This document shows positions 1-51,578 of a stretch of 55,475 nucleotides of DNA, piece by piece (the stretch's first letter is position 1; every line of letters starts with the position of its first letter). The position numbers and the translations under genes are program-made. This DNA is from a virus (Duplodnaviria > Caudoviricetes): positions 1-55,475 of IMG/VR virus record IMGVR_UViG_3300025430_000028; one strand, given 5' to 3'. The notes under the pieces are model-generated. The model did not search any database and was not told the origin of the DNA. It worked only from the letters and a program-made list of their open reading frames with translations.

Positions 1-69
1 GAATGGAAAAAAATAATTAGGAAAAATAAAATATTACAACAAAAAATAAATAACCAAAACAAATAACCT

Positions 70-291
70 ATGACACCAAAAGAAAAAGCACAAGAATTGG
101 TAGATAAGTTTGCTGAAATTATTCCTATTGAAGATGCAGAACATGGAGAAACAGAATCTTATTTTATACAATACGAAAAAGCCAAACAATGTGCATTAAT
201 AGCAGTAGATGAAATATTAAGCGTAGTGTGGTATGTTCCTGTTGATACAGAATATTGGGAAGAAGTAAAACAAGAAATAGAAAACCTATAA
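70..291 (+). CDS. small phage hypothetical protein (MTPKEKA... type)
   Basis: 73 aa ORF with an A-rich start context; resembles small early proteins of Bacteroidota phages. Confidence 0.75.
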   Translation: MTPKEKAQELVDKFAEIIPIEDAEHGETESYFIQYEKAKQCALIAVDEILSVVWYVPVDTEYWEEVKQEIENL

Positions 292-300
292 AATTAAACC

Positions 301-477
301 ATGAAACAAGAAGAAAAAAAACCAGTAGAAATAACAAGGTTAGAAATAATAAACCATGCAAAGAATGATAAGCCTTTTGGTAGGTTATTAACTTTGTATA
401 AGGAGTTAGGAGATTTTGAAGTATTAGAAATAGTGTATCAAGATGGTAAAAGGACTTTAAAGATATTTTTAGGGTAA
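301..477 (+). CDS. hypothetical protein, 58 aa (not in ORF track)
   Basis: Hand translation MKQEEKKPVEITRLEIINH...YQDGKRTLKIFLG*, starting 9 nt after the previous stop. Confidence 0.7.
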   Translation: MKQEEKKPVEITRLEIINHAKNDKPFGRLLTLYKELGDFEVLEIVYQDGKRTLKIFLG

Positions 478-700
478 TATTATGAGCTGAATAATTTATT
501 TATTTGGCTCACTTTGTTACAAGAATTGTTACATTTTACCCTTACTTTGTTGCAAGATTATATAATTTAGGTACAACAGGATATTATAATTTTGCGAAAG
601 ATAGTGAAAACTGCTACTTTTTGCAAACTTTTTATACGTTAAAAGATATAATGTGTCATAAAAGGGATAAATTATATCTTAATGGGTATAATAAGGGATA

Positions 701-1252
701 TTATTTGAGCCGATAGTAGGTAAAATCATGTCTATTTACGGTATCTTCATTGGGCATTATGTATTTTTCGTAGGTTTTTCCGTACCATATTTCCTTAATG
801 CAATATTGGGGAACTGCTACTTTATGTATTCCTATGTATAATTTTATTCCTTTCCAAGATACTTTTATTTTACAAGGGGCGATTTGTCGGCAATGATTTT
901 CTAGGGCTAACCATGTTTTACGGTTGAGATTGGGGGTCTGCGGAAATGCGTTACATAGGTCGAACGAGTTATATTCATCTTCCTTGCTTCCATTCATATC
1001 GCTTGCATCTGCATTATGGCCAATATCATATCCTGAATGAGCATAATCTTTGGTTAAATTAGGTCTGTCTCCTGTTGCATGAAAGCCATTTTCCCTACCA
1101 ACGGCCTTAGTATGGGCAGAACATATCCATATTACTGAATCTGGTATTTTAGTATCTATGTTATAATAGCTAGTATATGCAGGATATTTTACTACTTCTT
1201 GTTGAGGGTAGATAGTATAGGGAATTAATATGGCGATTAGTAGTTTAAGCAT
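701..1252 (-). CDS. secreted DNA/RNA non-specific endonuclease (NucA/Serratia-type, His-Me finger)
   Basis: SGYDIGH motif (DRGH-like), NAFPQ..LN...W..LE motif, hydrophobic N-terminus. Confidence 0.85.
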   Translation of the reverse strand: MLKLLIAILIPYTIYPQQEVVKYPAYTSYYNIDTKIPDSVIWICSAHTKAVGRENGFHATGDRPNLTKDYAHSGYDIGHNADASDMNGSKEDEYNSFDLCNAFPQTPNLNRKTWLALENHCRQIAPCKIKVSWKGIKLYIGIHKVAVPQYCIKEIWYGKTYEKYIMPNEDTVNRHDFTYYRLK

Positions 1253-1760
1253 TGTATTTTATTGAGTTTACTCGATTAATCCACCCATCCAGAAATTTAG
1301 ATTGAGATGGATTGGCCGATACTATGTTATTGTATTTTTCTATTCTTTTTGCCTTTAATTTATTGAATAAGTCCTGTGGGTCATGTGCGTTTATAGCTGC
1401 AAGGGTCTTATTACCAAAAAGACCATCTATTGTAACTCCTACTATTTCTTGAATGTATTTTGTTATTGTGGGCTTCCCGTTATTTATTCCTCCATCTACT
1501 ATATATTCTGCTAGGGATTGGTTTTTGATAGCATCGGCCATAAAATAATCCCAATATAGCTTTTTATAAATGGCATAAGCATCATTTTTAGTTAAATTTT
1601 TTAAATCAGCACAAGTTTTAGTGGTATCTTTTGAGAAAGTCTTTAAATCATCTAGGATAATACCCATTTTAGTGCATCCTCCATTATCAGTAGGGTCATT
1701 TTCGTATGCAGTTCCTTCTGAATTTAGTATTTTAGGGAATAACAAAGAAAAGTCTGCCAT
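1245..1760 (-). CDS. endolysin, glycoside hydrolase family 108 with C-terminal peptidoglycan-binding domain
   Basis: EG..YENDPTDNGGCTKMGI N-terminal motif, DGLFGNKTL, FLDGWINRV C-terminus. Confidence 0.9.
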   Translation of the reverse strand: MADFSLLFPKILNSEGTAYENDPTDNGGCTKMGIILDDLKTFSKDTTKTCADLKNLTKNDAYAIYKKLYWDYFMADAIKNQSLAEYIVDGGINNGKPTITKYIQEIVGVTIDGLFGNKTLAAINAHDPQDLFNKLKAKRIEKYNNIVSANPSQSKFLDGWINRVNSIKYNA

Positions 1761-1762
1761 TA

Positions 1763-2335
1763 TTATAAAGGTTTAATTCCTGAATAAATTTTATAAGACG
1801 CATATCCAAAAACAATAACTGCAAAACATATTAAAGCCCCTATGTATTTTTTATTTGCTGATTGCGCCGATTGTAGCACAGATGCTTGAGTGGCTACCGT
1901 TTCTATATCTTGTATATGTATTTTTTCATCATTAGCTATCTGGGTATCAAGAATAGCTATTTTTTGGTTATCTGCAATAGTATCTACTCTTGTTATGGTC
2001 TTAATGGTTATAATGGGCTTTATTTGGGCGATTAGAGCCGATTTAACGCTGTCAATATTCATTTCCTTAACAATGGCTGTATTAGCTAATTTTTGTCTTA
2101 AATCACTTAATTGAGCCGTATCTTCAAAAACAACAATAGCCGTATCATTTCTACCTACTTTTACTTCTGTTGGCACACATGGGTACAATTTATTTACTTC
2201 TGGTGCTACTTTATCAATTAAAGCTCTGCTACCAAGTACTCTATCTAAGGCTTGTTGATTCTTCTTTTCGGTACTACACCCAAAAAAAAGTAACCCCACT
2301 ATAACTAGCAGGGTTATATTTTTAAATTTATTCAT
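1763..2335 (-). CDS. probable unimolecular spanin
   Basis: N-terminal lipoprotein signal (LLFFG-C) plus C-terminal TM helix (YIGALICFAVIVFGYASY); adjacent to the endolysin. Confidence 0.7.
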   Translation of the reverse strand: MNKFKNITLLVIVGLLFFGCSTEKKNQQALDRVLGSRALIDKVAPEVNKLYPCVPTEVKVGRNDTAIVVFEDTAQLSDLRQKLANTAIVKEMNIDSVKSALIAQIKPIITIKTITRVDTIADNQKIAILDTQIANDEKIHIQDIETVATQASVLQSAQSANKKYIGALICFAVIVFGYASYKIYSGIKPL

Positions 2336-2338
2336 TTA

Positions 2339-2605
2339 TTAAGCTTTTGGGGCGAATAATGCTTTTACCCATTTGATAATTAAATCTAAGACACCATTAG
2401 CAGGTACATATTGGCTAGGGATGATAGATAAAATTTCAGATACAATGGCTAAGATACCAGCAATTTTAGCTGCTACTGGCCAATGAGCTTCTGCTGCATC
2501 AATACCACCCTTAACAAATGCTACTGCGGTGCTATCTTGAGCTATTACGCTTCCTGCGATTAGTACCAAAATGATAGATAAAGATAATTTTAATGCTTTT
2601 TTCAT
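2339..2605 (-). CDS. small membrane protein (holin/antiholin candidate)
   Basis: Signal-peptide-like N-terminus ending VIA-Q, a second hydrophobic helix, lysis-cassette position. Confidence 0.55.
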   Translation of the reverse strand: MKKALKLSLSIILVLIAGSVIAQDSTAVAFVKGGIDAAEAHWPVAAKIAGILAIVSEILSIIPSQYVPANGVLDLIIKWVKALFAPKA

Positions 2606-2608
2606 ACT

Positions 2609-2806
2609 TTAAATTTTATGTTTGTTTATTTTTTTAGTTGCAAAATAGTAATATCTAATCGCAAATAATGATGCTATCAATCCAACAAGCCCTGAAAATA
2701 TACCAATAATTGTACCCAATTTAGCTAGAGACACAGCTCCAAAGAATATTGCTCCTATAATGGATATTAACCCTTGAAAGGTATCTTGAATGTGTTTGTG
2801 TAACAT
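2609..2806 (-). CDS. holin candidate
   Basis: 65 aa with two hydrophobic segments and a basic C-tail (KKINKHKI); lysis cassette. Confidence 0.6.
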   Translation of the reverse strand: MLHKHIQDTFQGLISIIGAIFFGAVSLAKLGTIIGIFSGLVGLIASLFAIRYYYFATKKINKHKI

Positions 2807-2860
2807 GGGCTTGTGCTTGAATGAATGAATGACATATTTTTGATTAAATAATAATAATTT

Positions 2861-3112
2861 TTACTTCTTTTCTTCTTTAGGCACTTGCGGTTGTAATTGG
2901 TCTACTAATTCTTTTTGAAACTTAGATAATGAATCACAAACTGGGTTAGCATACTTAGAAGGAGCATCTGAATTTTTAAGTAATTGTTTTGCTGCTTCGA
3001 TAAGTTGTAGTTTGTCATTCCAAGTTTTAGCATCATACTTCACCGTTAATTCTTTTTCTGCAAAGGCGAATAGTAGGATACAACCTAATACCAATAGTCC
3101 TGTTTTTTTCAT
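2861..3112 (-). CDS. small helical protein with signal peptide, fibre-associated position
   Basis: MKKTGLLVLGCILLFAFA-E signal; lies downstream of the fibre gene. Confidence 0.7.
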   Translation of the reverse strand: MKKTGLLVLGCILLFAFAEKELTVKYDAKTWNDKLQLIEAAKQLLKNSDAPSKYANPVCDSLSKFQKELVDQLQPQVPKEEKK

Positions 3113-3125
3113 AGTTTGTTTTTTT

Positions 3126-3479
3126 TTATTTTGTTGTTGGTGTTACGAATGTTACGTTAATTTGTTGTCCTGTAAAATAAAACGGATAGGTGTTACTTCC
3201 GTTCCATCCTTGATAATCTGCACCGCCAATAGTAGCATTACCATCTATATGAGTTGCTCCTGTAGAATCTACTAAAGCCCAATAAAGGGTGCAAGTAGTC
3301 TTTAAGTTATCAAAAATTGACCTTACCCCCAAATAAGTACAAGGGATAGTATCAGAGTATTTAGCCATTACAGGATTAATAGGACATACTGCAATACCAA
3401 AATGTTTAGTAGTATCTATTACTTGGCTTTTTGATTGAAAGGCGATTGCTAATAAGGCAATTACTAATAATTTTTTCAT
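3126..3479 (-). CDS. exported fibre-associated protein (possible chaperone/accessory); start corrected to ATG 3479
   Basis: MKKLLVIALLAIAFQSKS-Q signal peptide; the TTG start in the track overlaps a TAAATTTG promoter at 3498-3505. Confidence 0.7.
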   Translation of the reverse strand: MKKLLVIALLAIAFQSKSQVIDTTKHFGIAVCPINPVMAKYSDTIPCTYLGVRSIFDNLKTTCTLYWALVDSTGATHIDGNATIGGADYQGWNGSNTYPFYFTGQQINVTFVTPTTK

Positions 3480-3516
3480 AATTTGATTATTCTTTGACAA
3501 ATTTAATGTATTTTAT

Positions 3517-6500
3517 TTAATTTTTTATACGCTTTTGTAAATCTTCTACTTTTTTCTCTAATTCCTGAATTGCATTAATTAATATAGGCACTAAATTCTC
3601 ACTCTTAATACCCAAATATTCAGAATCTTTAGATATAGGTTTTACTATTTCAGGTATTACTTTCTGCACTTCTTGGGCTAATAATCCGTATGTTAAGTTT
3701 TCTTTATTAGCATCTGAATTATAGTAGAATTGTTTGGTATTTAGCTTCATTACTGCATCAAGACCATAATTTAATGGAGATATTGAGTTTTTAAGTCTTA
3801 TATCAGAAGGGTTAGTATTTGTCAAAAATCCACTACTTGAATATACTGTTCCTGTTCCTAAACTATTAACTACTGCTCCATTTAACCATGCAGTACCATA
3901 TACTTGAAATTTATATCCATTATCTGTAGTTGTTCCCACAAGTAAATTACCAGAACTTGTAAATCTCATGCCTTCTAATTGAGATGAACCATATTGCCAT
4001 ATGTGTGCTGTATTTGCAGAATAATAATTATATCCACTACCTACGTTATCTATTGCTACATATCCTGCTACTCCTACTGCTTTAAATGGTGTTACTCCTG
4101 CTGTAGAATTATTAATGTGTAATAATGCACTTGGACTTGTAGTACCTATACCTACATTGCCTGTGCTACCATCAATTCTAAATCTTTCTAGAGTAAGAGG
4201 AATTGAACCATTCCATTGTGTAGTAGATAAAGTAAAAATGCTTGAAGCAGCTCCACCTACAGGATTATATATATTTTTTAATACGATAGGATATTGAACT
4301 CCATTCCAAACTTGTGTTAAATTTAATTGAGATGAAGTTGAACTACTAGATGAGCCTAATATATTTACTACAGTTGGTCCTGCATCATTTCCTGTTCTAG
4401 TATTTCCAAAAATACCATCCGTTCCTGCCGTTACACTACTTGAGAATGTAGCAGCTCCTCCTGCACCTAATTTAAAAATAGTTGAATATGTTAATGAACT
4501 ATAACTTGATTGTGGACTTGACCATTGAAAAAGTAAATTGGCTGCATCAGCATCAGTATCATATCTAACTGAAAATCCTTGTGACGATGTTGCTCCTGCG
4601 TGACCTAAAAATTGCAATAATGCACCACCATTTGTAGTTGATTTGCTTCCATATAATCCTTCAAAAGAATAAGTTGCTCCTGAATAATAACTTCCAGTTA
4701 ACGAACCATTAAAACTTGTTGCATTTACACTACTTGAGAATGTAGCAGCTCCTGTGGAGGCTATGGTAAGTCTAGGAGTGCTACCTGTTTGTAAATTTAA
4801 TCCATTAGAATTTTGGAATATACCACTTACATAAGAACCTGCACCATTAAAAAATATACCTCCATTGCTATAAGTAAACATATCTGAATTAAAATAGCTT
4901 GTCCCATTAACCTGTAGCTTATACCCTGCATCTGTTTGGGTATTTATCAAAAAATTTCCAGAGCTTGTAAGTCTTGCCTTTTCAGTAGAAGTGTTTGAAT
5001 ATCCCAATAATAAGTTATTAGCACTATTCCATGTTATCGCAAAATCTCCTGCTACTGCTCCTGTAATATAGTTATTAGACTGAGTAGCCATCCCGTATAA
5101 AGCTGAGTATGTGGGGGATGCTATGTTATCCGCAAATCTTATCGAAGGTCCTGTTCCTGTTACCGCCATTTGGTTATCCGCACTTGCACTATAAACTACA
5201 AATCGCCTTCCACCATTAGTTGTAGTATTAACCATAAACCCTGTACCATCATCATAAGCTGTACTTGTATTAACAGTATTTGTTCCTGTCCATTTGGTTA
5301 TATAGTTAGTTGTTCCTGTTCCTGTTACGGGATTGGTAAGAGCATTTTGTTTATTATTAAAAGTATTCCAATCTGTAGAACTTAAATAACCATTACTACT
5401 TGTAGTTGCTTGTGAAATAGAAATAGCCGGAGTAGTACCACCCGAAGATGAAATAGGAGAAGTCCCTGTTACGCTTGTAACATAAGTTCCTGCTGCCTGA
5501 TATTGCGGAATATTTAAAACCCCTGTACTTGTAGTATAGGTAGCTGCTCCACTTGTTCCTGTTGTTGTTAAACTTATTGCATTTCTTGGATAGAATGTTT
5601 TATATCCTGCAAGCATCGAGGCAGTATCAGTATAATTAACCTTTAAAGCAGTAACACCTAAAACATTATTAAATCGAGGTTGTATTGTTGCAGTATCCGC
5701 ATTTAAAGCTACTATCCCTGTACGGTAGTTATTCAACATTGAGGCTGTATCAGTATAGTTTACTTTTGTAGCTACCACCCCTAATACATTATTAAATCGA
5801 GGTTGTATTGTAGCTGTATCTGCATTAAGGGCTATTATACCTGTTCTATAATTATTTAACATCGAGGCTGTATCAGAATACTTAACATCTACTCCTCTAC
5901 TACTATCTACATAATTTTTATCTACCTTAGTTCTTGAAGTATAAGATGACCCTAAATTTGAAGTATAAGTATCTAATCCCGAAGAATTAATTGTACCTGT
6001 AGTGCTAAACCCTGCTGTTCCTGCTGTGCTATTGGAAGGGAAGAAAACATGGACATCCCATTGACCTGCTGAAAAGCTATTAGATAATAAAATAACCTCA
6101 ACATATCCCCCCGAAGGAACTGTATATAACGCACCCCCACCATATTGTTGTATTGCTAAACCACCTGTAGCATTATTGTTAAATTGATAAGTATTTCCTA
6201 TTGCGATAGTTGTTGCATTGGGTAATACTATTGTAGTTGTAGTTGGTGCACCACTTGTTATATACCAGTTCTGTGATGATGAACTTGTCATATTAGTAGT
6301 AGAACCACCTGCTACCCCTGTTACTGCAGATTGAAACCCATTAGCTGAAACAAAACCTGTAAAATTAGCAGTAGTTCCATTTAAATTACCCGTTAAAGTA
6401 CCACCACTTAAAGGCAAATAACCGCCACTTACTGACCTTGTATAAGGTGCTAACATTGCAGCCGTATCACTATACTTAACTCTTGCAGCAATTTGAGCAG

Positions 6501-8046
6501 CTTGATAGATAGTATCGGCATTAAGAGCAATAATACCATTAAGATAATTATTAAGCATCGAAGCAGTATCAGTATAATTTACTTTTAAAGCTAAAGCTGC
6601 ATTAGCAGTTGCAGTCCTGTAATATGGACTAAGCATGGAAGCCGTATCTGTATAATTAACTTTAGTTGCAAGTTGCGTGTTAATGTAATTAAGCCGACCA
6701 TAAGGAGAAAGCATAGAAGCAGTATCGGTATATTTAACGTAATTTCCTAAAGCTGTAGTTCTTGCATAAGGGCTTAGCATTGAAGCTGTATCTGTGTACT
6801 TTACTCTCGCAGCAATTTGGGCTGCTTGGTAAACTGTATCTGCATTTAAAGCAATTATTCCTGTACGGTAATTTGCCAACATTGAAGCAGTATCGCTATA
6901 TTTTACAGCAGTTAAACTTCTTTGATAAGGAGAAAGCATACTAGAAGTATCTGTATATTTAACCCTAGCTGCAATCTGTGCTGCTTGATATACTGTATCA
7001 GCGTTTAATGCAATAATCCCATTTCTATAATTGGCTAGCATATTAGCTGTATCTGAAATATTAACTTTTAAATTAACATTAGCAGACACAGAATCTATAC
7101 CTTTTTGTCGCCATAATCTAGTAGAAATAACAGTAGTATCTATTGCAAGAGTTCCCGAAGTAGTAATTGTTCCACCTGTAATACCTGTATTGTTATTAGT
7201 AGCCACACTTGTAACTGTACCACCTGTAGATGGACTAGAGTTTGTTATAACACCTGTTGATGGGTTATAGCTTATTCCTGTTCCGGCACTAATCGCATTT
7301 CTAGGATAATAAGTCTTATACCCACTAAGCATTGAAGATGTATCAGAATACTTTACTAATGAAGGAAGCCATCCTAATGAAATCCATTTATTAGTAGTAT
7401 CAGATGTTAAGGCAAAAGTGCCACTATTATCAGGTAAATATATTGTTCTATTTGCTGTAATATTTGTTGCATATATCCCTGCTCCTACTAAAGAACTATT
7501 ATTTATAGTAATACCATATATATTTGAAGTTATCTGCCCATTGAATATTGTATTATAAGAAAATGTTTTATTCCCACCTATTGATTCATTACCTGTTAAA
7601 TGTACGACATTATTATTCCTTGCATAAGGGCTTAGCATTGATGCGGTATCTGAATATTTAACGTATGACCCTAATTGATATGTTTTAGCATATGGAGCTA
7701 ACATTGAAGCAGTATCGCCATATTTTACTAAGGAAGGCAACCAACCGCTACTTAACCATTTACCAGTTGTATCTACCTTTCTAAGATAAGGATTTAACAT
7801 TGAGGCTGTATCGGTATATTTAACATATCCTGATACATTTATTGGGGAAGTCCATTTAGTACCATCACATATATACATTGTATTATTGATGATAGCTATA
7901 CCATTAACCTTTAAATAAGACGTATCGCTAATTTGTAACGCTAATCTATTAAATGAATTACCATACGCTTGTGATGGTGTAAATTGTTGCCCTTTAGCGA
8001 TTACTAAAAAAACAAAACTAAATAATATTAAACATACTTTTTTCAT
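3517..8046 (-). CDS. long tail-fibre-like protein with signal peptide, DTASML repeats and C-terminal intramolecular chaperone (peptidase S74-type) domain
   Basis: SDIRLKNSI...GLLAQEV...AIQEL tail; GNVGIGTTSP/GAATFSSSV fibre repeats; N-terminal MKKVCLILFSFVFLVIAKG-Q. Confidence 0.85.
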   Translation of the reverse strand: MKKVCLILFSFVFLVIAKGQQFTPSQAYGNSFNRLALQISDTSYLKVNGIAIINNTMYICDGTKWTSPINVSGYVKYTDTASMLNPYLRKVDTTGKWLSSGWLPSLVKYGDTASMLAPYAKTYQLGSYVKYSDTASMLSPYARNNNVVHLTGNESIGGNKTFSYNTIFNGQITSNIYGITINNSSLVGAGIYATNITANRTIYLPDNSGTFALTSDTTNKWISLGWLPSLVKYSDTSSMLSGYKTYYPRNAISAGTGISYNPSTGVITNSSPSTGGTVTSVATNNNTGITGGTITTSGTLAIDTTVISTRLWRQKGIDSVSANVNLKVNISDTANMLANYRNGIIALNADTVYQAAQIAARVKYTDTSSMLSPYQRSLTAVKYSDTASMLANYRTGIIALNADTVYQAAQIAARVKYTDTASMLSPYARTTALGNYVKYTDTASMLSPYGRLNYINTQLATKVNYTDTASMLSPYYRTATANAALALKVNYTDTASMLNNYLNGIIALNADTIYQAAQIAARVKYSDTAAMLAPYTRSVSGGYLPLSGGTLTGNLNGTTANFTGFVSANGFQSAVTGVAGGSTTNMTSSSSQNWYITSGAPTTTTIVLPNATTIAIGNTYQFNNNATGGLAIQQYGGGALYTVPSGGYVEVILLSNSFSAGQWDVHVFFPSNSTAGTAGFSTTGTINSSGLDTYTSNLGSSYTSRTKVDKNYVDSSRGVDVKYSDTASMLNNYRTGIIALNADTATIQPRFNNVLGVVATKVNYTDTASMLNNYRTGIVALNADTATIQPRFNNVLGVTALKVNYTDTASMLAGYKTFYPRNAISLTTTGTSGAATYTTSTGVLNIPQYQAAGTYVTSVTGTSPISSSGGTTPAISISQATTSSNGYLSSTDWNTFNNKQNALTNPVTGTGTTNYITKWTGTNTVNTSTAYDDGTGFMVNTTTNGGRRFVVYSASADNQMAVTGTGPSIRFADNIASPTYSALYGMATQSNNYITGAVAGDFAITWNSANNLLLGYSNTSTEKARLTSSGNFLINTQTDAGYKLQVNGTSYFNSDMFTYSNGGIFFNGAGSYVSGIFQNSNGLNLQTGSTPRLTIASTGAATFSSSVNATSFNGSLTGSYYSGATYSFEGLYGSKSTTNGGALLQFLGHAGATSSQGFSVRYDTDADAANLLFQWSSPQSSYSSLTYSTIFKLGAGGAATFSSSVTAGTDGIFGNTRTGNDAGPTVVNILGSSSSSTSSQLNLTQVWNGVQYPIVLKNIYNPVGGAASSIFTLSTTQWNGSIPLTLERFRIDGSTGNVGIGTTSPSALLHINNSTAGVTPFKAVGVAGYVAIDNVGSGYNYYSANTAHIWQYGSSQLEGMRFTSSGNLLVGTTTDNGYKFQVYGTAWLNGAVVNSLGTGTVYSSSGFLTNTNPSDIRLKNSISPLNYGLDAVMKLNTKQFYYNSDANKENLTYGLLAQEVQKVIPEIVKPISKDSEYLGIKSENLVPILINAIQELEKKVEDLQKRIKN
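5600..7830 (-). repeat. imperfect protein-level repeats (V-K/N-Y-T/S-D-T-A-S-M-L-x-x-Y), about 15 copies, in the fibre gene
   Basis: Counted by hand in the translation; the DNA copies inspected differ largely at synonymous positions. Confidence 0.9.
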
Positions 8047-8063
8047 AAACTTAATTACTGTTT

Positions 8064-9389
8064 TTATGGCAAATAAATAGTACCCATATCTTCTATTACA
8101 CCTGTTGCATTATAAGTTACAGTTCCAGTACCACCTGTTTTTACTGTTTTTATATTTATAGTATCCCCTTGTATTGAATTTATAATTATACTTGGGTATG
8201 TATAAAAATTAGCAGTACTAAAGCTGCCTAATACTATAGTTCTTGCAGTTCCTCCTTCATCATTAAAATTAACTACTACATTATATGTATTTAAACTATC
8301 TGCAATTACATTTATATTAACGTTTATTCTATAAGCATGAACATTACTAGGAAATGGTACTGTATATGATACAATACTTGCTAATGTATCTAAATTATCA
8401 GGTACTAAAGCTTCTGCTACTATAATCGGGGCGTTTGGTATGTCAGAAACCAAAGCTACTGTTCCTGTATTATCAGGAAATGTATAAGTATTACTAGAAG
8501 TTGCAGGGAATAATATAGAAGGAGAACCACCACCATTTAACCCAAAATTAAGACCTTCAAATCCAGTAGTGCTTGTACTATGAAATGTAGTATATCCTGA
8601 AATAGTTGATAAAGAGCCTGATGTAGATAATGCGAATGATTTATTTGAAATTATATTACTATCACTACGTAGATTATTTTTAAATCTACCAATCCCATTT
8701 ACATCTAACATGTATGTGCTAGGATTTGAAGTATAACCAACGGCCACATGATTACTACCATCATCTTGCATAATACTATTTGATAATCCTGTTGAGCTTG
8801 ACCATTTAGGTATAAATGCAGTAGTTCCCGAACCAGTTACCGTACCTGATGGGACTGAATATTGAGGAACATTTAAAACACCTGTAGATTGATTATATGT
8901 TGCAGCTCCGCTACTACCTGTAGTTGTTAATGATAAAGAAGCTCTTGGATAATAACTTTTATATCCATTTAGCATGGATGTTGTATCTGAATACTTAACT
9001 GATTGATTTGATATATATGCAATACTATCTACTACTTTTGTAGTATATGCTTTGGTACTAATTGACGTAGTATCAACACTAAAATTAGCACTAGCTAGTT
9101 TAAGACCATAACCATTAGTATAAGCTCCTCCATTATTACCTCCAAATGGCTTCCAGCTTTTACCTGTATATACGTATAATGTACTATCTGATAATCTAAA
9201 AGTAGATGCTCCTAGTCTATATGGCTTAAATGTAGTATCTCTTATTGGATTGAAAAAACCTGAATCGCATTGTAAATATTGCGTAAAATCATACCATTTG
9301 CCATTAAATAAAGTAGGAAGTCCTGTTGGGGACTGAGAATATCCTGCTATACTCACTAGGATGAATAAAATTAAAAATATTTTTTTCAT
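8064..9389 (-). CDS. second fibre-like protein with signal peptide, partly paralogous to the 1509 aa fibre
   Basis: MKKIFLILFILVSIAGYS-Q; shares the YPR.SLTTTG.SGAATY..STGVLN.PQY and VTG.GTT..I.KW segments with the long fibre. Confidence 0.75.
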   Translation of the reverse strand: MKKIFLILFILVSIAGYSQSPTGLPTLFNGKWYDFTQYLQCDSGFFNPIRDTTFKPYRLGASTFRLSDSTLYVYTGKSWKPFGGNNGGAYTNGYGLKLASANFSVDTTSISTKAYTTKVVDSIAYISNQSVKYSDTTSMLNGYKSYYPRASLSLTTTGSSGAATYNQSTGVLNVPQYSVPSGTVTGSGTTAFIPKWSSSTGLSNSIMQDDGSNHVAVGYTSNPSTYMLDVNGIGRFKNNLRSDSNIISNKSFALSTSGSLSTISGYTTFHSTSTTGFEGLNFGLNGGGSPSILFPATSSNTYTFPDNTGTVALVSDIPNAPIIVAEALVPDNLDTLASIVSYTVPFPSNVHAYRINVNINVIADSLNTYNVVVNFNDEGGTARTIVLGSFSTANFYTYPSIIINSIQGDTINIKTVKTGGTGTVTYNATGVIEDMGTIYLP

Positions 9390-9406
9390 GCATCAAATAT
9401 ACGAAA

Positions 9407-10249
9407 TTACAATGAAACATAGGTTACAGAAATAACTTCACCATCTAAGAAAACATCACCTGTTGGAGGTGTAAATGTACCTGTAGATGGGGTATATTGT
9501 ATTTGGTTCATATTTGACGTAGAAGTCAATACCGGCTGCTTAACTTGAGTATCTCTACTAACCAAAACTAAATCTGTAATCGGAACGTTTATTAATTGAG
9601 AGAAAGCATATGAGATTGCAGAGCCTACAAATGTATGATAAAGAGTAGGTTGCAAGGTCTTACCACTTGTATTAGAAGTAGCCAATCCCTTGTTGTATTC
9701 GTATATAAATACCTGTCCTGCTTGTGCAGGGAAGTTTAAAGTAACAATAATTGATGAAGAACTATATAGAATAGTATAGCTATTTTGGTTGGTAGCTCCT
9801 TGTGGAATTTGAAGCCCATCCACCGTCATTAAGAAACTACCAGCCACGATTCTGCTATCTGTAATTGTAAATGTAGTACCACCAACACCTAATGGCGCAC
9901 TTGACTCCCCTATAGTAAATTGATTTTGAACCATCAATATACCATTTAACAATTCTCCAGTAGTTGGGTTATAGATAATATTACCACTAGATTGAGTAAC
10001 AATAGACCTTGCTAAAACACCATAGTAACCGCACAATTGATAAACCCAATTAGCTACCTGAGTTAATGTAGGTTCTGTAGGGTTATTTGTATAACACCAA
10101 GCCAATGCAGCGTTTTCTGCATATATTTTTTGAGGCAAAGATGGGTCTAAACTACCTGTATTGAAAATTTCATTGGTAGTAACCGCATTTTGAGCCAAAT
10201 ATTCAGAAACTTTAGCTATATTTATTATCTGCTTGGTCGTTAGTGCCAT
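9407..10249 (-). CDS. putative tail structural protein (fibre docking/hub candidate); start corrected to MALTTK at 10249
   Basis: ATG overlaps the upstream TAA (TAATG coupling); helical N-terminus followed by beta-rich domains. Confidence 0.6.
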   Translation of the reverse strand: MALTTKQIINIAKVSEYLAQNAVTTNEIFNTGSLDPSLPQKIYAENAALAWCYTNNPTEPTLTQVANWVYQLCGYYGVLARSIVTQSSGNIIYNPTTGELLNGILMVQNQFTIGESSAPLGVGGTTFTITDSRIVAGSFLMTVDGLQIPQGATNQNSYTILYSSSSIIVTLNFPAQAGQVFIYEYNKGLATSNTSGKTLQPTLYHTFVGSAISYAFSQLINVPITDLVLVSRDTQVKQPVLTSTSNMNQIQYTPSTGTFTPPTGDVFLDGEVISVTYVSL

Positions 10250-10764
10250 TAGAATAAGAAGTTTTGATTTGCTATTAAATATTGTGCTCTGTTTAAAGCA
10301 TCTTGTGCAGAAGCTATATCGTTCCCATAATTCACAGCATTCGAGCATTCATCTATAAACGTTCTCAATAATAACTTATTTTGATAATAAGAACTATCTC
10401 TAATTGGTATTTGACCTGAAGCTATATATTGAGTTAGATTGTAGTAAAATAATTCACTATTAAGAGTAAAGGCAAATAAAGCATTTACTGTGTATTGAGG
10501 AACTGTTGCTACCATCCACTCTACTGTAATACTTAATGCATAATCTTGATTTAATACATTAATATTAATAAAGCTAGGGCCTAACGGCCAATCAACATAA
10601 TTAGTATTCGTTCCTGTAGGCACTAAGTACGTACCATCGGCCTGTTGTATATAAACCCTTCTTCCTGTAATAGCTACATCTGACCCAGTAGAAGTATCAT
10701 TTACAACTAGGATACTAGGCTGAGAAAAATTTTGTGCTACTGTGAATGCTGGTGAAAATGACAT
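10249..10764 (-). CDS. putative tail structural protein
   Basis: 171 aa ORF, beta-rich then helical; promoter at 10782-10789; lies between the ejection and fibre genes. Confidence 0.6.
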   Translation of the reverse strand: MSFSPAFTVAQNFSQPSILVVNDTSTGSDVAITGRRVYIQQADGTYLVPTGTNTNYVDWPLGPSFININVLNQDYALSITVEWMVATVPQYTVNALFAFTLNSELFYYNLTQYIASGQIPIRDSSYYQNKLLLRTFIDECSNAVNYGNDIASAQDALNRAQYLIANQNFLF

Positions 10765-10832
10765 TGTATTGAAATTTAGGTCAAATTTATGATTTTTTTA
10801 ACTATTTTTTGTTTTTTTCTTATTTTACATTA

Positions 10833-13800
10833 TTATTTAGCTTCTGCAACTCTAAACCCTGTTGAACCAGAAATAGCTCCACTTAATATACCTTTAAGAA
10901 CATCATTAAGCTGAGATTCATCTGCTCCATTATCAATTGCAGATTGGTATGTCACCTTAGCAGCTTCGGCAACAGGTAATGGAGCTTTTTGAAATAAATA
11001 TTCCCAAGCGGTAAGTGTATGTTTACCTTTTTTTGGCTCATCTCCTATATATGGTAATGGATTACCAAAAAAATCAGACCTTGTAACTAAATCTACAGGA
11101 ATGGAATATCCCGGAGCTAGTTTACCTCTACCATACCCAATAGCTTTTTCACCTAATATATCTATTCTACTTTTCCCATAAAGTTCTTCTTGAGGTTTAA
11201 TAGCAGCTTTTGTCAATTCTTTTATAAAATTTAAGACTCCAATTTGACCAGAACTAGGGTCTATCATTAAATTACCAAATTTAAATTTAAGCCAATCAGA
11301 TTTAGAAGGGTCTAATAAATTTACTTTTTTATCAGGGTTCAATACACTTTGCAACCCTGCATTAGCTCCTAATAATATAGTCATAGTTGCTAATTGCTGA
11401 CCTACTCTGTTTGCCCATACTTTTGCAAAAGCTCTTTCTGCTGCTGTGGATTGACTAGGATTAGTTAATGCTTTTATAGCATAAGTAGTTGCTTGCACAG
11501 GATTCCTAGTTAATTTAGCCCATCTTGAAGCTTCCATACCTCCTGCAAATGTTACTTCATTTACCCATTTAGGTACATTTAAATTAGTAGCCCCTGTTGC
11601 GTTATTAATTAATCTAGCTATGCTTTTAGCTACTTCTGGGTCAGCCTTATCAGCTTCACTTAATTTATTAAACTCGCTATCAAATAACCCTTGTCTTAAT
11701 ACTTTAATAGCATTAAAACCTTTTTCCCCAGCAGCTCCTGCCTTTGATAAGAATCTAGGCATATATTTTTGAGATGTCTGAAATTCTTCTATATCTTTTG
11801 CAGATGTAGCATCAGGATTATTTTTTAACCCTGCTCTTTGAGCTGTAACGTAATTAGGGCTATGTTTAAGTTCATTAATAGCTTTTTGATAATTAGCCTC
11901 ACTACCATAAGCAAATTTCCATCCATTTAAAAATGCAGGTATAGTTTGTTTCCATGTTGAAGGCTGAAATAATGTCATACCAGCGTGAGTCCCAACAAAT
12001 ATACCACCATGACCAAAAACACTTATACTTCTAAATAAATTTGTAACTTTTCTAACTGATTTAGGTATCCCAGATAAAGCTTGTTCGTCAATCCAATTTT
12101 CAGTAGCAACTCTACCCCTATTATAATCATATTCACGTTTCCACATAGCATCTGAAATTCGTTGCGTTTTAGGAGTATTTATAGCTTCATTAACTTGTCT
12201 CCATGATAATCCTAAATCACTAGCCACATACCCAATCATATCTCTATAAGAAGCTCCTTTATCTAAATAAGTATCTTTAGCGTATTTCCAAATATCCTTA
12301 GATTCATCAATGTTAAATTTATTATCTCTTTTGTCTTTAAATTTATTTTGTAAATCATTTAATCTTTCTTCATTCTGTTTAGCTATTTCATCATCAGTTA
12401 AAGGCTTTTCACCTTTAGATTTTAAAATACCTAAATTTTTCTTTAAATCATATATATCATCATTTAATTTATCTATTTTTTGTTGCTGCTCAGGTGTTGG
12501 ATTTAAATTACTTTCTTTTTTTTGTTTAACTATCCCTCTTTCTAAATCATCTTTTTCTTTTTCAAGCAATCTTATTTTTCTATCTTCAGGAGTTTCTTTA
12601 ATTGCATCAGTATAATGCTGTGTTAAATCTTTTTCTAATTTATTTTTATCTTTATCTGATAATTTATTATACCATTCTGATTCTTTTATTTTATCCAAAA
12701 TAATAGCTACTCCATCTGCTATTTGTCCTGTTTTTTCAATAGCCTTAGCACCAAGTTCTACTAAGTCATTCCAAGACGCACCTTGTATTTGAATTGGGAT
12801 TTGATTACCATTTTCATCTGTAAACGTTAATGGCTTTGTTTTTAATTTTCTAAAAGTATCAGCATATTTTTTAGCTATTTCTGATAATTTCTTTTTAGGC
12901 TCATTTTCTACTCCTTCTCCTAAAAATTCTTTATTAGCTGCATCAACTGCATCTTTCTCAGCAACGGTTAATCTAGCTTTTCGTATTTGATTATCTTTAG
13001 TTAAAGATTTAGCTTTAGCTTCTTGCTCTTTTGTTAAAGCTTTTCTAGTAATAGCTTTAAATCTATTAGAAACTGCTTGAAAATCATCTGTATCTATATC
13101 TCTTTCACCTTGTAATGCAACAAAGCTTCTAGCTGCTTCTGTGCCAAGTAATTTAGTTTTTACAGCATATTCGGCAAGTTTGTTTAATGAATATTTATAT
13201 TCATCACTATCTATTCCAAATTCAGCAGCTACGGCATCTGATTCTTTTTTTAATTTTTCAAGTTGCGCTCTAGCTATAGATATTCTATCATGTAATGGTG
13301 CATTATAATCAGTAACATCATCAGGATTAGCTCCATTTTCTAAAAGAGTCCTTCCTCTGTCTGCATACCATTTTGGAGGGTAATATTGTCCTCTTATTGG
13401 TTCTGGTAAATTTAATTTTTTAGCTAAATTTGATAATGAACTATGTGAAACACCTACTAAATTTTTATCACCTTCCTCTACTCCTGTGGGAGCTTCGGTA
13501 CTTGTGGTTTTTTCATCATTGATAGTTTCCCCTTCCTTTTCTGCTTCTGGCTGCTCACCGACTTCTCCGGCAGGCTCTCCCCTTTGCTCGCCTGATTCCA
13601 CTCCTCCACGTTCACCCCCTGTTGCTCCAGTTTCTCCTTGTTGGCGTTGAAGTACGCTCTCTGCGCTTGGCTCTTGAATGGCATTTTTTGTTGTTTTTAT
13701 TGGTTCTTTTAATAAATTTTCTGCTTCTGATATTGGTATTAGTTGGGTTACTTTATTACCATTTTCATCTACCTTACTTACATTAACTAATCCTTTTCCT

Positions 13801-16800
13801 TTATTTATATTCTCTACAGTTCTTCCATCAGGCAATACAGCACCTTCTTTTAATTCAGATTCAGGTAATTCACCTTCCTCTTTTTTACCTAATTCTAAAA
13901 ATTTTTTAGTTGTTTCATCAGTCCATTTACCATCTGTCTCCTCTAAGGCCCTTAATGCTCTTGTAACCTTACTATGTGTTATAACGGCTGTTTCCTTTCC
14001 TAATTCATTTTTAGTATGGTCATACGCTTTTTCCATTCTATTTGTAAAACTATCAAATTTTTCAACTGTATTATCATTATTATATTCACCTTCAGTCCAT
14101 CCTTTTTCATCAAATGAGCCTTCGGGTTGACCATCATATCTACCTATATCGGCTGTTCTATAAATAGGATTTGATACGCTTTTAACTCCAGCAACTTCGG
14201 CTACTTTTTTACCAGTCTGTATTCCCCTTTCTACATCAGAATGTTCTACTGTAGTTAAATCTGGATTATTTTCTTTTATATAATTACCAATATCTTCAGC
14301 CTCTTGAAGTCCTTCAGGTGTTAAATGACTATCATCTTTTACTCCATTTTCTAGACCTTGCGCTGTTTTATTATCTTCCCCATGTTCAAATACTTTAGTT
14401 CCTGTAATTTCTATTGGCTGGACTTTACCTGCTCCTGTTGGTATTGGCTCTGCTTTAATTTCTTCTTTTTTGCTTGGTATCGCTTCTGTTATAAAAGTTC
14501 CTTTATAAACATCATCCATTTTATCTTTAATATCAGATAATCTTTTTGACATTGCATCCTGCAAATCTTTAGGTAAGTCTTTATTTAAATTACTTTCTAA
14601 ATCATCTTCTTGCATTTTTAAAAACATCAATTCATTCCTACTTTTATCATCTAATTTATTACCTTTAGCATCAACCATTGGTGTTTTTTCATAAACATCT
14701 TTTGCTCTTTGTATATTATCTCTTATTTGAGAAGCTTCTAATGGTTTTATAGTACCATCAGCTTCTTTTTGTTTTAATATACCTAATGCTTCTTCGCTAT
14801 TCTTACCTGCTAAATATAATTGTTCTTTTACCGCATCTGGAACATTTTTAGAAATTGCACCTATCCCAGTTCCAAATAATGCAAAATTCAATCCTTGTAA
14901 TATTTGTTGTTTTGCAAATTGATTATAATCAACATCTTTCCCATCAATCTTTTGCTGAATTAATTGTGAAGCCCCTAATATTGGTTGCATTTTAGCAGCA
15001 CCTAAAGCTCCTTCTTTTGCAGCTTCTGGTAGTTTTGAGAAAAAATCTTTTAATACACTTGGTTTATCTCTTAATGCAGTTAATATCTCATCATCACTTA
15101 ATTTATTTATAGCAATACCCATTGCGGTTTTAGTACCTGCTGCTGCTTTTATTCTTTCTGGGATATCACCAACTGTATATGCTAAAGCATTAATACCTGT
15201 ATTTGTAAAAGCTTTTAATCTTGGATTTGCTTCATTCTTAGCTGTAGCATTGGCTAATTCATCTTGATATGATGTAGCTAATACATTCCCAAATGTTGTA
15301 AATAATTTTTTACCTAATCCAGCAGTTGCTCCTCCACCTGTAAATGCTTCTGCTGCTATATAAGGGAATAAATCAGCAGCCATTTTACCTACCCCATAAA
15401 TTAATGTATTAGCTCCTACATTTAATCCTTCATCTGTTTTTTCTTGTGAATATTTATCTTTATTATCTATAAATAATCTAGCAACTTTTGTTTTTCTTTC
15501 TTCATCAGTTAATGTATAATCATTTTTAACTTCATCTATTTTATCTTGTAGCTCGTTATCTTTTAAAATTTTAAAATCTGGTAATGTAGTATTTGCTTGA
15601 GTAACATAAAGATTAGGCCCATTAACTTGCTCCCCTCCTAATGCATTTAATTGAGCTAATGCTTCCCCTTTTTGACTTCTAAATGGAGATGCTAGTAAAT
15701 TATATACACCTTGTCCTGTTTTATATGCATTATAAGCGGCTAAATTAGTTAAATAATCAACTCCTGTTTTTCTTTGTCCTAGTTCTTCTTGAGCTAATTT
15801 GTCTGCATCTAAATATGATATGTCAGGATATTTTACTGATAATTGTTTCATTTGCTCAGAAACATTATCCATTTTATCTTTATATTGATTTGCTTTTGCC
15901 AAATCATCTGGACTTAGACCATTTTGTTCTTTTGATTTTTTTACAAAATCATCATAATGAGATTTATTATTACTATATATTGTATTTAATCCAGTTTCTT
16001 CTAACTCTTTAAGCTTAGATTGTCTTGCTACATTAGCATAATAATCATTAGAAACATCTTCGTCTTTAAGATTTATATAATTAGATAATGCAGGTACTTC
16101 TTCTGGATGCTGTCTTGAATATAAATCAAATCCTATTGATTGAGCAGGATTAAGTCCGGGTATAGGATTATCTGTTCTTGATTTAACTGCGGCATCATTA
16201 CCATAAGCTAATGAGTGGTCTTTTACTAAATTTTTTAATGCATTTTGCTGGTCATCACTATTATCTATATATTTATGTATTAGATTTGTTGCATTATCAG
16301 TATCGGTTTTCTTTTGTTCATATGTCTTATCCACGCCCCCTGATTGCCCTGCACTTAATGCTGTTTTATCTGCATTTATTTCATCTATTTTTGAAGCCTT
16401 TAATTCAGGAGTTAAACTATTATCTTTATTTACATCTTCTATAGCATTATCCATTGCATTTATTAATGGATTCTGCCATTTTATACTAGAAACAGTTTGA
16501 TTGAATTTTACTTTATTATTTTTATATAAATCGGCTAAATATCCTTCACTACCATATCCAGAATTTGGGAGATTAGGTAAATCTGAAACAGCATCAGTAA
16601 AGTCAGTATCATATCCTTGACTTTTTAAATAATCTTTTATTTTTTTAGATTGTGCTACTTTTTCTTCATCTGGCTGAGTAGTTGAAACAACAGGGCCTCC
16701 AACAGTAGATGAGCTAGGCATATCTATTGTTTTAACAGCATTACCTAATTCTTTTGATTTTTTAGATAATTCTACTAATCCACCAATTAAATCAGCATCA

Positions 16801-20445: not shown

Positions 20446-20895
20446 TTAATAAACTAATTTTGTTACTAAATTATCTAAATAAATAAATTCATCTATAACT
20501 TCCATACCCATTTTAACCAAAAAACCAATCGCCCTTAAATTCTTACTCCACAAATGACATATAAAATTCTTACCTATTTTTTTAGCTATAGATGAGAAAA
20601 ATTGTCTCAAATATTGCCTATTTCTATATTGTATATTAAGACCAAAGCTTATCAATAATTTATCTTTATAAAAGAAATATCCTATTAATTTACCTTTTTC
20701 GTAAAATCCATAATAGTGCATTTCTCCCTCAACTTCTTCATAGCTTTTTTCTTTCCTTAATATATCTTCTACTATGTCATCTAAACTTTCAATAAATACT
20801 GTAGGGTCGTAATATTTAAAAATATCCATATCCCCAGCAAATGCCACTCTTATTGCATTCCCTAATTCGTTATGATTTATTTTCTTTACTATCAT
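20446..20895 (-). CDS. GNAT-fold acetyltransferase-like protein (T7 gp13-like position)
   Basis: KLIGYF and N.RAI.FL.K.G motifs; directly follows the muzzle gene. Confidence 0.65.
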   Translation of the reverse strand: MIVKKINHNELGNAIRVAFAGDMDIFKYYDPTVFIESLDDIVEDILRKEKSYEEVEGEMHYYGFYEKGKLIGYFFYKDKLLISFGLNIQYRNRQYLRQFFSSIAKKIGKNFICHLWSKNLRAIGFLVKMGMEVIDEFIYLDNLVTKLVY

Positions 20896-25653: not shown

Positions 25654-25926
25654 CTATTTTTCAATATAAGCCAATATATCTTGCTGTTGCATCAGCACAT
25701 ATTTCTCTCCTTCATCTTCAATTTCAGTACCAGCTCCTTTTATATGGAAACATAATACATTAATTGGTAAGTTCATTGGTTTTTCTTTACTTCCATTCCC
25801 TACAGCTACAATCATTCCTCTATTACTCCTACTTTTAATACTATCAGGTACTATAATACCACCTAATGAAATACTTTCAGTATAATCAGGCTTGATTAAA
25901 ACTGAATTTTTAATCGGTCTTATCAT
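25654..25926 (-). CDS. groES: co-chaperonin GroES
   Basis: RP...VLIKP...GGIIVPDS...G.IVAVG.G...GTEI...GEKYVLM...DILA. Confidence 0.9.
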   Translation of the reverse strand: MIRPIKNSVLIKPDYTESISLGGIIVPDSIKSRSNRGMIVAVGNGSKEKPMNLPINVLCFHIKGAGTEIEDEGEKYVLMQQQDILAYIEK

Positions 25927-32491: not shown

Positions 32492-32872
32492 TTATGTTAA
32501 CGTTAGCATGTAGGCTACATGAGCAAACAATCCGCTTAAATCTTGAGCCATATTTTCAATATCACAATATTCTTTTTCTTCAGCCCATTCATACATCTCA
32601 TGTGAAAAATCTAGCCCATCTTTTATTAACTGATTAACGGCTTCTTTGCTATATATTGGCAGCTCATCCAATTTAGCTTTACCTATTCTCTTACCATTTT
32701 GGTATCCCATTAATTTCTCTAAAATATTATCTTTTACATCATGCACTCCTTGATATATTTTATGAAGAGCTTTATGTTCTTCAAAATTTCTAGTATCTAA
32801 ATGCAAAGAATGTGCAACATTTTGCAATGAAAATAGCTTAGATTTAATTACTTCAGGTGTTATTTGTGCCAT
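32492..32872 (-). CDS. ferritin-like four-helix protein (DUF5856-like)
   Basis: H..H..T....EHKAL...Y motif, E..MG, and YMLTLT C-terminus. Confidence 0.7.
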   Translation of the reverse strand: MAQITPEVIKSKLFSLQNVAHSLHLDTRNFEEHKALHKIYQGVHDVKDNILEKLMGYQNGKRIGKAKLDELPIYSKEAVNQLIKDGLDFSHEMYEWAEEKEYCDIENMAQDLSGLFAHVAYMLTLT

Positions 32873-51556: not shown

Positions 51557-51578
51557 ATGGGTTTGTTTTAAAAATGAG

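Follow-up and report, generated by a model that had tools for sequence, protein, structure and literature searches.

Introduction

In textbook tailed phages, all virion parts are assembled in the cytoplasm. Cellulophaga phage phi18:3 (Pachyviridae; NC_021794.1) encodes three proteins, gp085, gp086 and gp087, that begin with Sec-type leaders (...GYS↓Q, ...VSA↓Q and ...LNA↓Q; the arrow marks the predicted cut) and whose genes immediately precede those of small membrane proteins and the endolysin. The RefSeq record lists them as virion structural/tail proteins 'based on experimental MS/MS proteomics analysis' (MS/MS, tandem mass spectrometry); the paper behind this annotation is reportedly Holmfeldt et al. 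2013. Their equivalents in phages phi13:2 and phi19:3 have the same leaders, and some of these are annotated as pectate lyase or tail fiber; the leaders go unmentioned in the Cellulophaga phage records. Here, the 55,475-base viral record IMGVR_UViG_3300025430_000028 was analyzed (the window, which is the whole IMG/VR record; CheckV completeness 51%, G+C 26-36%). Two genes at its tail-fibre position (fibre 1 and fibre 2) and a small partner gene of 117 amino acids (aa) encode products with predicted Sec leaders, and the fibres are very probably exported. They are read here as virion-borne receptor-binding fibres that would join the particle at lysis; the probability of this whole reading is put at about 0.6, export being its likely part and attachment the more conjectural one.

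The Pachyviridae proteins are like the window's fibres in their small-x-small↓Gln sites, their place upstream of holin/endolysin genes and their combination of a conserved N-terminus with a variable distal part. Linkage of fibre and lysis genes is present in both, at different genome places: the phi18:3 module sits before the terminase gene, whereas that of the window follows the cargo gene. Phage phi13:2 serves as the outgroup of the crassviruses in the PhicrAss001 structure paper (PMC10172136).

Leader sequences on the fibre module

The fibre module comprises the following features.

8064-9389 (-): fibre 1, 441 aa, with leader, conserved mature N-domain and variable distal part
9336-9389 (-): leader of fibre 1 (residues 1-18), MKK and 13 hydrophobic residues, predicted cut ...AGYS↓Q
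9000-9335 (-): mature N-terminal domain of fibre 1, Q-x-PTGLPTLFNGKW...LYxYTGxxW
3517-8046 (-): fibre 2, 1509 aa, with leader, short conserved N-domain, long repeat shaft, fibre-tip region and S74 chaperone
7990-8046 (-): leader of fibre 2 (residues 1-19), predicted cut ...IAKG↓QQ
5602-7821 (-): shaft of fibre 2, K-Y-(S/T)-D-T-A-S-M-L-x-x-Y and L-N-A-D-T-x repeats, each with a D-(S/T)-x sequon
3640-3807 (-): Peptidase_S74 intramolecular chaperone of fibre 2 (PF13884, residues 1414-1469)
3126-3479 (-): 117-aa protein, ATG at 3479, leader ...QSKS↓Q, two conserved Cys in the mature part
2861-3112 (-): 83-aa protein, leader ...AFA↓E, no counterpart in related loci

Leaders were called by a rule that required a positive n-region, a hydrophobic core with a mean Kyte-Doolittle value ≥2.3, positions -3 and -1 both occupied by small residues, and polar sequence following the site. 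Eight of the 70 open reading frames (ORFs) of the window were flagged, seven of them within nine consecutive genes at 701-9389; the probability of such a cluster anywhere in the window was ~1.4e-5. Beyond the fibres, the run takes in three proteins of the lysis cassette, namely a membrane protein of 88 aa, a lipoprotein of 190 aa and a nuclease; within it, only the GH108 endolysin and a 65-aa protein with two hydrophobic spans lack a leader.

A sequence-only reading of this DNA had noted that four consecutive genes start with MKK, a hydrophobic core and a small residue. All four ORFs are present on the minus strand with these N-termini, and all pass the rule: fibre 1, fibre 2, the 117-aa protein and the 83-aa protein each have MKK and 11-14 hydrophobic residues (core hydropathy 3.0-3.8), followed by G-Y-S, A-K-G, S-K-S and A-F-A, respectively, with small residues at -3 and -1. 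Gln at +1, which the same reading called typical of Bacteroidota signal peptidase I substrates, follows the site in both fibres and in the 117-aa protein; in the 83-aa protein the residue is Glu. In Bacteroidetes, signal peptidase I cuts before Gln (the Q-rule; PMC5837995), and pyroglutamate formed from Gln has been reported to stabilise extracytoplasmic proteins (PMC10653852). The predicted cleavage is supported because Gln at exactly +1 has a known role only once the leader has been cut (PMC5837995), and the predicted leader features point to a Bacteroidota host. The mature part of the 117-aa protein has two Cys that are kept in all lineages compared, a pair that would fit oxidative folding. 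A lipoprotein assignment was tried for the 83-aa protein and rejected, its Cys at residue 11 being too early; the classical A-F-A↓E site fits better.

Fibre 2 has a C-terminal S74 domain (PF13884, 50 bits against a cut-off of 22, E-value 3.6e-13) in which the match opens with S-D-I-R-L-K, where the Ser/Lys dyad for autocleavage would be expected. Its last 170 residues match PHROG tail-fibre families, and many phage tail fibres were matched by tblastn, covering residues ~1256-1509 only. A 123-nt tandem repeat at 5614-5886 (2.2 copies, 80% matches) lies inside the shaft and encodes the unit RTGI(I/V)ALNADTATIQPRFNNVLGV...KVNYTDTASMLNNY, a sign of what would be recent expansion of the shaft repeat. 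No fibre-family match was found elsewhere in the window by the Pfam and PHROG scans, in agreement with the earlier statement that it holds no other full-length fibre gene; fibres outside this 51% complete contig are conceivable.

Pfam and PHROGs gave no match for fibre 1 or the 117-aa, 83-aa, 88-aa, 190-aa, 279-aa and 171-aa proteins, and NCBIfam gave none for 10 module proteins. An AlphaFold2 (AF2) model of fibre 1 built on a 33-row alignment was poor (mean predicted local distance difference test score (pLDDT) 44.9), with moderate confidence only in the leader helix and residues 50-80. When the N-domains of fibres 1 and 2 were compared by hhalign, only the LYxxxGxxW stretch was aligned, at a probability of 17%, which does not show homology.

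The sole leader-flagged ORF outside the fibre-lysis block encodes a 204-aa protein in the early/replication region (49640-50254 (-)), with a Sec-type leader ...SFS↓Q. It matches no family and could have an envelope-modifying or superinfection-exclusion role.

Start codons and conservation in related loci

One scan of JGI/ENA metagenome contigs with the mature N-domain of fibre 1 gave eight related loci, L005-L010 among them. They repeat the window's gene order: the giant protein and the 171-aa protein come first, then a protein of 275-281 aa, followed by fibre 1, fibre 2 and the 117-aa homologue, all three leader-bearing, and by small membrane proteins and the lipoprotein. In locus L010 (2946-6666) there are three consecutive fibre genes with leaders (450, 336 and >452 aa), against two in the window, and the number of putatively exported fibres therefore varies within the clade.

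The fibre ATGs of L005-L010, in four lineages, abut or overlap the previous stop codon (TAATG, ATGA, TAAATG), and no conserved internal or downstream Met was found in the fibre genes of these loci. The start codons are fixed by these two observations, so that, as judged from the gene overlaps, the predicted fibre starts are real and not artefacts. True starts downstream of the hydrophobic segments had been named in advance as a way in which the prediction might fail; the overlaps in the relatives place the starts upstream, leaders included.

Fibre-1 leaders end in ...GYS↓Q, ...ANA↓Q or ...SFS↓Q across lineages, and fibre-2 leaders in ...AKG↓Q, ...AKA↓Q or ...SNA↓Q (the AKA and SNA of relatives both followed by QQ). 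The extra third fibre of L010 has the leader ...IFA↓Q, and the 117-aa protein has ...SKS↓Q in the window and ...LKA↓Q in L005-L008. The hydrophobic cores differ between lineages, and the small-x-small site with Gln is kept in every lineage; what is conserved is the type of leader, not its sequence. Gln19 of fibre 1 was ≥90% conserved in the 33-sequence alignment, and the residues just past the predicted cut (Q-x-PTGLPTLFNGKW) are the most conserved of the protein. Fibre 1 is 48-57% identical to its relatives over residues 1-140, with no detectable identity beyond; fibre 2 has only its first 65-150 residues in common with relatives whose lengths range from 336 to 1509 aa. The 117-aa protein is 47-53% identical to its homologues in L005-L008. 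A conserved N-domain with a variable distal part is the usual pattern of a receptor-binding protein with a particle-binding N-terminus, and the predicted fibres conform to it.

With a profile (A3) built on the mature N-domain of fibre 1, 1.84 billion cluster representatives were searched; 402 matched at E ≤1e-3, 58 at 1e-10 and 11 at 1e-30. Family proteins among the matches listed ranged from 91 to 1830 aa. From the 150 matches listed, 75 representatives in which the N-part of the domain was covered were chosen by eye; in these the domain starts ~17-24 residues from the N-terminus. The leader rule was passed by 67 of the 75, the other eight being N-truncated gene calls or having the leader further upstream, and a small-x-small↓Q site was present in residues 9-45 of 72, the three exceptions being N-truncated calls. 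A stricter leader-plus-Q rule was passed by 101 of the 149 listed proteins (window's own excluded).

Other searches gave no relatives: megablast of 2800-9500 and tblastn of fibre 1, both against phages, and viral-contig searches with fibre 1, the 279-aa and 171-aa proteins, A1 and A3. Queries A1 and A2 matched none of 185,579 species-representative genomes, in a search by very specific word patterns that does not thereby show absence.

O-glycosylation sequons

The sequon D-(S/T)-(A/I/L/V/M/T) is glycosylated only on non-cytoplasmic proteins, after the glycan has been flipped to the periplasm, according to PMC8550257 and PMC12871550. Sequons were counted in all ORFs, and expectations were taken from composition-preserving shuffles. 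The eight leader-flagged ORFs have 42 sequons in 2815 aa and the other 62 ORFs have 32 in 14,745 aa, a sevenfold difference. Counts for single proteins were as follows.

Fibre 2: 22 sequons, 5.5 expected, reached by 0 of 2000 shuffles
Fibre 1: 8 sequons, 2.0 expected, reached by 2 of 2000 shuffles
117-aa protein: 3 sequons, 0.5 expected, reached by 12 of 2000 shuffles
190-aa lipoprotein: 4 sequons, 0.6 expected, reached by 4 of 2000 shuffles
Giant 2124-aa protein (no leader): 0 sequons, 6.7 expected
Muzzle-type 1325-aa protein (no leader): 1 sequon, 4.4 expected
279-aa and 171-aa proteins (no leader): 0 sequons each

The giant proteins of L005 and L006 are below expectation too (4 against 7.0 and 5 against 7.4). 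Among the fibre-2 sequons, 13 of 22 are of the DTxxML type (KY(S/T)DTASML) and five are of the LNADT type. The 75 N-domain representatives together have 714 sequons against 241 expected. A set of 21 homologues was sorted by eye on their N-termini into 10 with a leader, six complete without a leader and five fragments or unclear starts, which were left out. The leader-bearing proteins of this set have 61 sequons against ~22 expected and the leaderless ones 5 against 16; the sequon-bearing shaft repeat is present in seven of the 10 and in none of the six. The sequon excess would be a second, independent mark of the periplasm on the leader-bearing proteins, and glycosylation of these is predicted.

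The earlier claim that the whole module is co-exported fared well, on indirect sequence evidence, for fibre 1, fibre 2 and the 117-aa protein, in which leaders are kept in type across the related phages together with the +1 Gln, the sequon excess and, in the 117-aa protein, the Cys pair. It did not carry over to the 83-aa protein, which has Glu at +1 and no counterpart in the related loci and is not a conserved member of the module.

Lysis cassette and leaderless neighbours

The genes on either side of the fibre module are listed below.

10249-10764 (-): 171-aa protein, no leader, 48-60% identical in L005, L008 and L010
9407-10246 (-): 279-aa protein, no leader, 45-99% identical to relatives
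2609-2806 (-): 65-aa protein, two hydrophobic spans, no NCBIfam match
2339-2605 (-): 88-aa membrane protein, leader-like span ...VIA↓Q and a later hydrophobic span
1763-2335 (-): 190-aa protein, lipobox-like ...FFG↓C, C-terminal hydrophobic span, between the holin-like genes and the endolysin
1245-1760 (-): endolysin, no leader, Glyco_hydro_108 and PG_binding_3, 31% identical to phi18:3 gp092
701-1252 (-): Endonuclease_NS (DNA/RNA non-specific) nuclease, hydrophobic N-terminus, last gene of the lysis block

From sequence and position, the 65-aa protein appears holin-like, the 88-aa protein may be holin- or antiholin-like, and the 190-aa protein resembles a unimolecular spanin; at its place, a lipoprotein of 170 aa (...IMS↓C; L006 14119-14631) is encoded in relatives. 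The nuclease gene starts within the end of the endolysin gene, its cleavage site is ambiguous (Pro beside Gln-Gln), and the nuclease may be exported and freed at lysis.

The 279-aa protein lies in a longer ORF (9407-10348) whose true start is Met35, the equivalent Met being used in relatives, and in these relatives the stop codon of its gene adjoins or overlaps the start of fibre 1. Both this protein and the 171-aa protein are candidate adaptor or hub parts on which the fibres might dock. An AF2 model of the 279-aa protein was middling (pLDDT 63.9). Foldseek on this model gave weak matches (template modelling score ~0.2, E-value 7e-5 to 5e-4) to podophage portal-tail/baseplate chains and to the N-terminal attachment region of CBA120 TSP4, which serve as a lead only. 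The same holds for a comparison of the 279-aa protein with the ESM Atlas, in which the top score was 0.90 to unnamed viral clusters, followed by 0.88 to a cluster with 20% Phage_T7_tail. Prediction of a complex between the mature N-domain of fibre 1 and these two leaderless proteins (279 aa and 171 aa) scored 0.00 with controls absent and counts neither way on binding.

The sequence-only reading had further proposed that the fibres might be displayed on the infected cell as adhesins. No type IX secretion system (T9SS) C-terminal sorting domain was found in fibre 1, fibre 2 or the 117-aa protein by Pfam and NCBIfam, and none of the three has a lipobox Cys. Surface display is unlikely because neither a T9SS domain nor a lipobox is there to carry the fibres across the outer membrane, and this route was rejected.

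Genome context

The minus strand carries nearly all long genes of the window, in a late operon of the crAss/Pachyviridae type. The order is terminase, portal, capsid-type protein, several 'virion structural' PHROG families, 1325-aa protein and 2124-aa protein.

35795-37873 (-): large terminase (TerL)
33247-35709 (-): portal
29866-31293 (-): capsid-type protein
20892-24869 (-): 1325-aa muzzle-type protein, Pfam PF25729 crass muzzle C-terminal domain
10833-17207 (-): 2124-aa giant virion-type protein, His_Phos_1 at residues 942-1087

The PF25729 match is by a narrow margin (27.3 bits against a cut-off of 27). The 1325-aa protein is homologous to phi18:3 gp114 over residues 8-1092 and to gp115 over residues 1158-1306; either it is a fused form or the phi18:3 version is split. 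A 208-aa protein of the window bears a weak resemblance to crass ring protein 2 (PF25702; 22.5 bits, cut-off 27). The closest cultured phages are distant, with TerL 26-28% identical over the full length to that of the Flavobacterium 'elemo' podophages and the Pachyviridae Cellulophaga phages phi18:3, phi13:2, phi46:3 and phi19:3. In phi18:3, whose TerL is 26% identical, the portal, capsid, muzzle (gp114 and gp115) and endolysin are also common to both phages. Because of these similarities in TerL, portal, capsid, muzzle and endolysin, the phage is, by its gene content, a podophage of the crAss/Pachyviridae type.

A homing endonuclease gene of the GIY-YIG type (PHROG 314, 7168, 5123; 28878-29750 (-)) lies between the capsid gene and the next structural genes. 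A GroES-like co-chaperonin gene lies inside the tail module, and GroES-like proteins are encoded by elemo and Pachyviridae phages too; between the portal and capsid genes is a protein that matches the PHROG 'starvation-inducible transcriptional regulator' (these two genes at 25654-25926 (-) and 32492-32872 (-)). Two tRNA genes, tRNA-Asp (GTC) and tRNA-Gln (TTG), are at 51297-51383 and 51578-51649 (-). A promoter/terminator scan of 1-11000 gave counts not above those of shuffles.

Proposed assembly route

In the proposed route, the host Sec system would translocate the pre-proteins of both fibres and of the 117-aa protein late in infection, signal peptidase I would cut the leader before Gln, and host glutaminyl cyclase would cyclise the new N-terminal Gln. 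Folding and trimerisation of the mature fibres would take place in the periplasm, aided in fibre 2 by its S74 chaperone, and the host would probably O-glycosylate the fibres there, chiefly on the KY(S/T)DTASML shaft repeats. Meanwhile, fibreless particles would fill with DNA in the cytoplasm. Only once the downstream holin-like, endolysin and spanin-like genes had breached the inner membrane would docking become possible, then or later in the lysate; the conserved mature N-termini of the fibres would attach to the tail, where the two leaderless proteins of 279 and 171 aa might receive them. A plausible benefit would be that fibres gain the protection of host surface proteins (pyroglutamate cap, glycans). 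Translocation, cleavage, glycosylation, docking partner and time of attachment are all inferred here.

That the fibres would join the virion only at lysis had also been suggested by the sequence-only reading. This part is supported by analogy only, through the phi18:3 leader proteins that occupy the same pre-lysis position and are annotated as virion proteins from MS/MS. An N-terminal docking peptide has precedent because the PhicrAss001 fibre gp22 docks via its first 26 residues into the THA/THB hub of two small proteins (PMC10172136).

Weighing of the evidence

Several observations weigh against exported, virion-borne fibres. The phage is known from its genes alone, so that export and virion content are both read from sequence, and all leader calls rest on the rule given above. 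One public gene call (P0001) begins fibre 1 at Val12, a start that has no support from relatives. Among the sequon counts, the cytoplasmic portal has 5 against 1.5 expected; 18 of the 22 fibre-2 sequons are in two repeat types and are thus not independent events; the fibre-2 relatives are mildly enriched, with observed counts reached by 99, 132, 48, 12 and 177 per 1000 shuffles; and homologue P0014 has a leader and 0 sequons. The phi18:3 proteins gp085-gp087 are without detectable sequence similarity to the window's fibres and have only one sequon each, and their MS/MS annotation is compatible with mere co-purification. PhicrAss001 gp22 keeps its residues 1-26 and has no cleaved leader (PMC10172136), and the Flavobacterium elemo podophages have fibres without a leader, so that the trait is not general in the wider group. 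Assembly over two compartments also carries an obvious efficiency cost, and with the contig 51% complete, other fibres could lie outside it.

The fibres might instead be exported and remain outside the virion, as periplasmic or lysis-released accessory fibres that mask or consume receptors, act as decoys for competing phages or bind the matrix after lysis, with receptor binding left to the muzzle or to genes outside the window. All evidence for export holds equally for such proteins, the fibre genes adjoin the lysis cassette and a secreted-type nuclease among envelope-acting proteins, the link to the particle is itself a prediction, and the contig is incomplete. This explanation is nevertheless considered unlikely: virion-anchored receptor-binding proteins show just this pairing of a conserved mature N-terminus and a distal part that varies, the S74 chaperone and the fibre-tip region match those of genuine tail fibres, and the genes come directly after the tail/cargo genes and are translationally coupled to a leaderless conserved protein in relatives. 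The analogous phi18:3 leader proteins are annotated as virion proteins, and neither the window nor L005-L010 offers another fibre candidate.

Retention of the N-termini as uncleaved signal anchors or as tethers of the signal-arrest-release (SAR) kind is highly unlikely. The MKK/MRR positive-inside n-region and single hydrophobic span would give an N-in, C-out topology, the genes adjoin holin genes, and cleavage is itself a prediction; yet SAR domains are rich in Gly and Ala, whereas the cores seen here are short (11-14 residues) and strongly hydrophobic (scores 3.0-3.8), and the residues right after the site are the most conserved of the protein. The small-x-small site with Gln is moreover kept in every lineage, and that Gln has a known role only after cleavage (PMC5837995). 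Least probable, and indeed very improbable, is that there is no export at all, the N-termini being mis-called starts or a cytoplasmic handle for assembly or aggregation. The Val12 gene call, the shaft-repeat homologues without a leader (6 of 21 homologues) and the textbook expectation of cytoplasmic assembly speak for it. They are opposed by the stop/start overlaps that fix the ATG in four lineages with no conserved internal start, by the co-occurrence of leader, +1 Gln and sequon excess over the 75 family representatives, and by the depletion of the sequon in leaderless homologues (5 against 16 expected). Export followed by attachment to the particle at lysis is accordingly retained as the preferred, provisional reading.

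Implications

If virion-borne, exported fibres are confirmed, the Sec system, signal peptidase I and glutaminyl cyclase of the host would be needed for virion assembly, perhaps together with its O-glycosylation machinery; these would be host-dependency factors of a new kind and might offer routes to resistance. The final step of assembly would be tied to lysis, which would account for the joint occurrence of fibre and lysis genes here and in Pachyviridae. The fibres may bear host glycans, with consequences for stability against Bacteroidota proteases, for host-range prediction and for recombinant production, for which export would be required. Pipelines for annotation would mislabel such fibres if they cut back or discount a hydrophobic N-terminus on a structural protein, as the public call at Val12 illustrates. 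More tentatively, and with odds put slightly below even, two-compartment assembly, a pyroglutamate cap, a host O-glycan coat and the meeting of the two halves at lysis could extend to a large class of receptor-binding fibres of Bacteroidota tailed phages, at least 400 protein clusters having this N-domain; the infectious particle would in that case bear host-made glycans on the part that touches the next host.

Comparison with known systems

Sec/YidC-dependent virion proteins (pIII and pVIII) are known in filamentous phages, which are assembled at the membrane and are placed in a different virus realm. Streptococcus mitis phage SM1 has the fibre-like proteins PblA and PblB, which act at the surface after holin/lysin-dependent release and are not known to have a leader. 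Late attachment to finished particles is known for P22 tailspikes and T4 fibres, even in vitro. Classical S74 members, such as the T5 L-shaped tail fibre and the K1F endosialidase, are not known to carry leaders, and their folding is cytoplasmic. What fibre 2 has in common with S74 tail fibres and spikes is the S74 domain and the fibre-tip match, only its last ~250 residues being similar to them.

The window's fibres are like Bacteroidota substrates of Sec and signal peptidase I in leader build, +1 Gln and sequon excess (PMC5837995, PMC10653852, PMC8550257, PMC12871550). The known Q-rule and O-glycosylation substrates are cellular proteins, whereas those of the window are phage fibre proteins; the word 'phage' occurs 0 times in PMC12871550. 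In Porphyromonas gingivalis phages, as in the window, phage proteins are predicted to be cut before Gln by host signal peptidase I; the five genes concerned have no known function and are discussed as host-envelope modifiers, not as fibres (PMC10367356). For two rumen Bacteroides phages, PMC5723332 gives no more than a count of signal peptides. The PhicrAss001 paper (PMC10172136) has 0 occurrences of 'signal peptide', and the 279-aa and 171-aa proteins of the window match no crass hub family in Pfam or NCBIfam. Literature searches found no paper describing Sec leaders on tailed-phage fibres. Against this background, what is new here is a clade in which a whole block (two fibres, a small partner and lysis genes) bears predicted leaders, a defined N-domain family of 402 clusters that is leader-preceded (small-x-small↓Q in 72 of the 75 N-part-matched representatives), and a sequon-bearing shaft repeat tied to the leader-bearing homologues (7/10 against 0/6).

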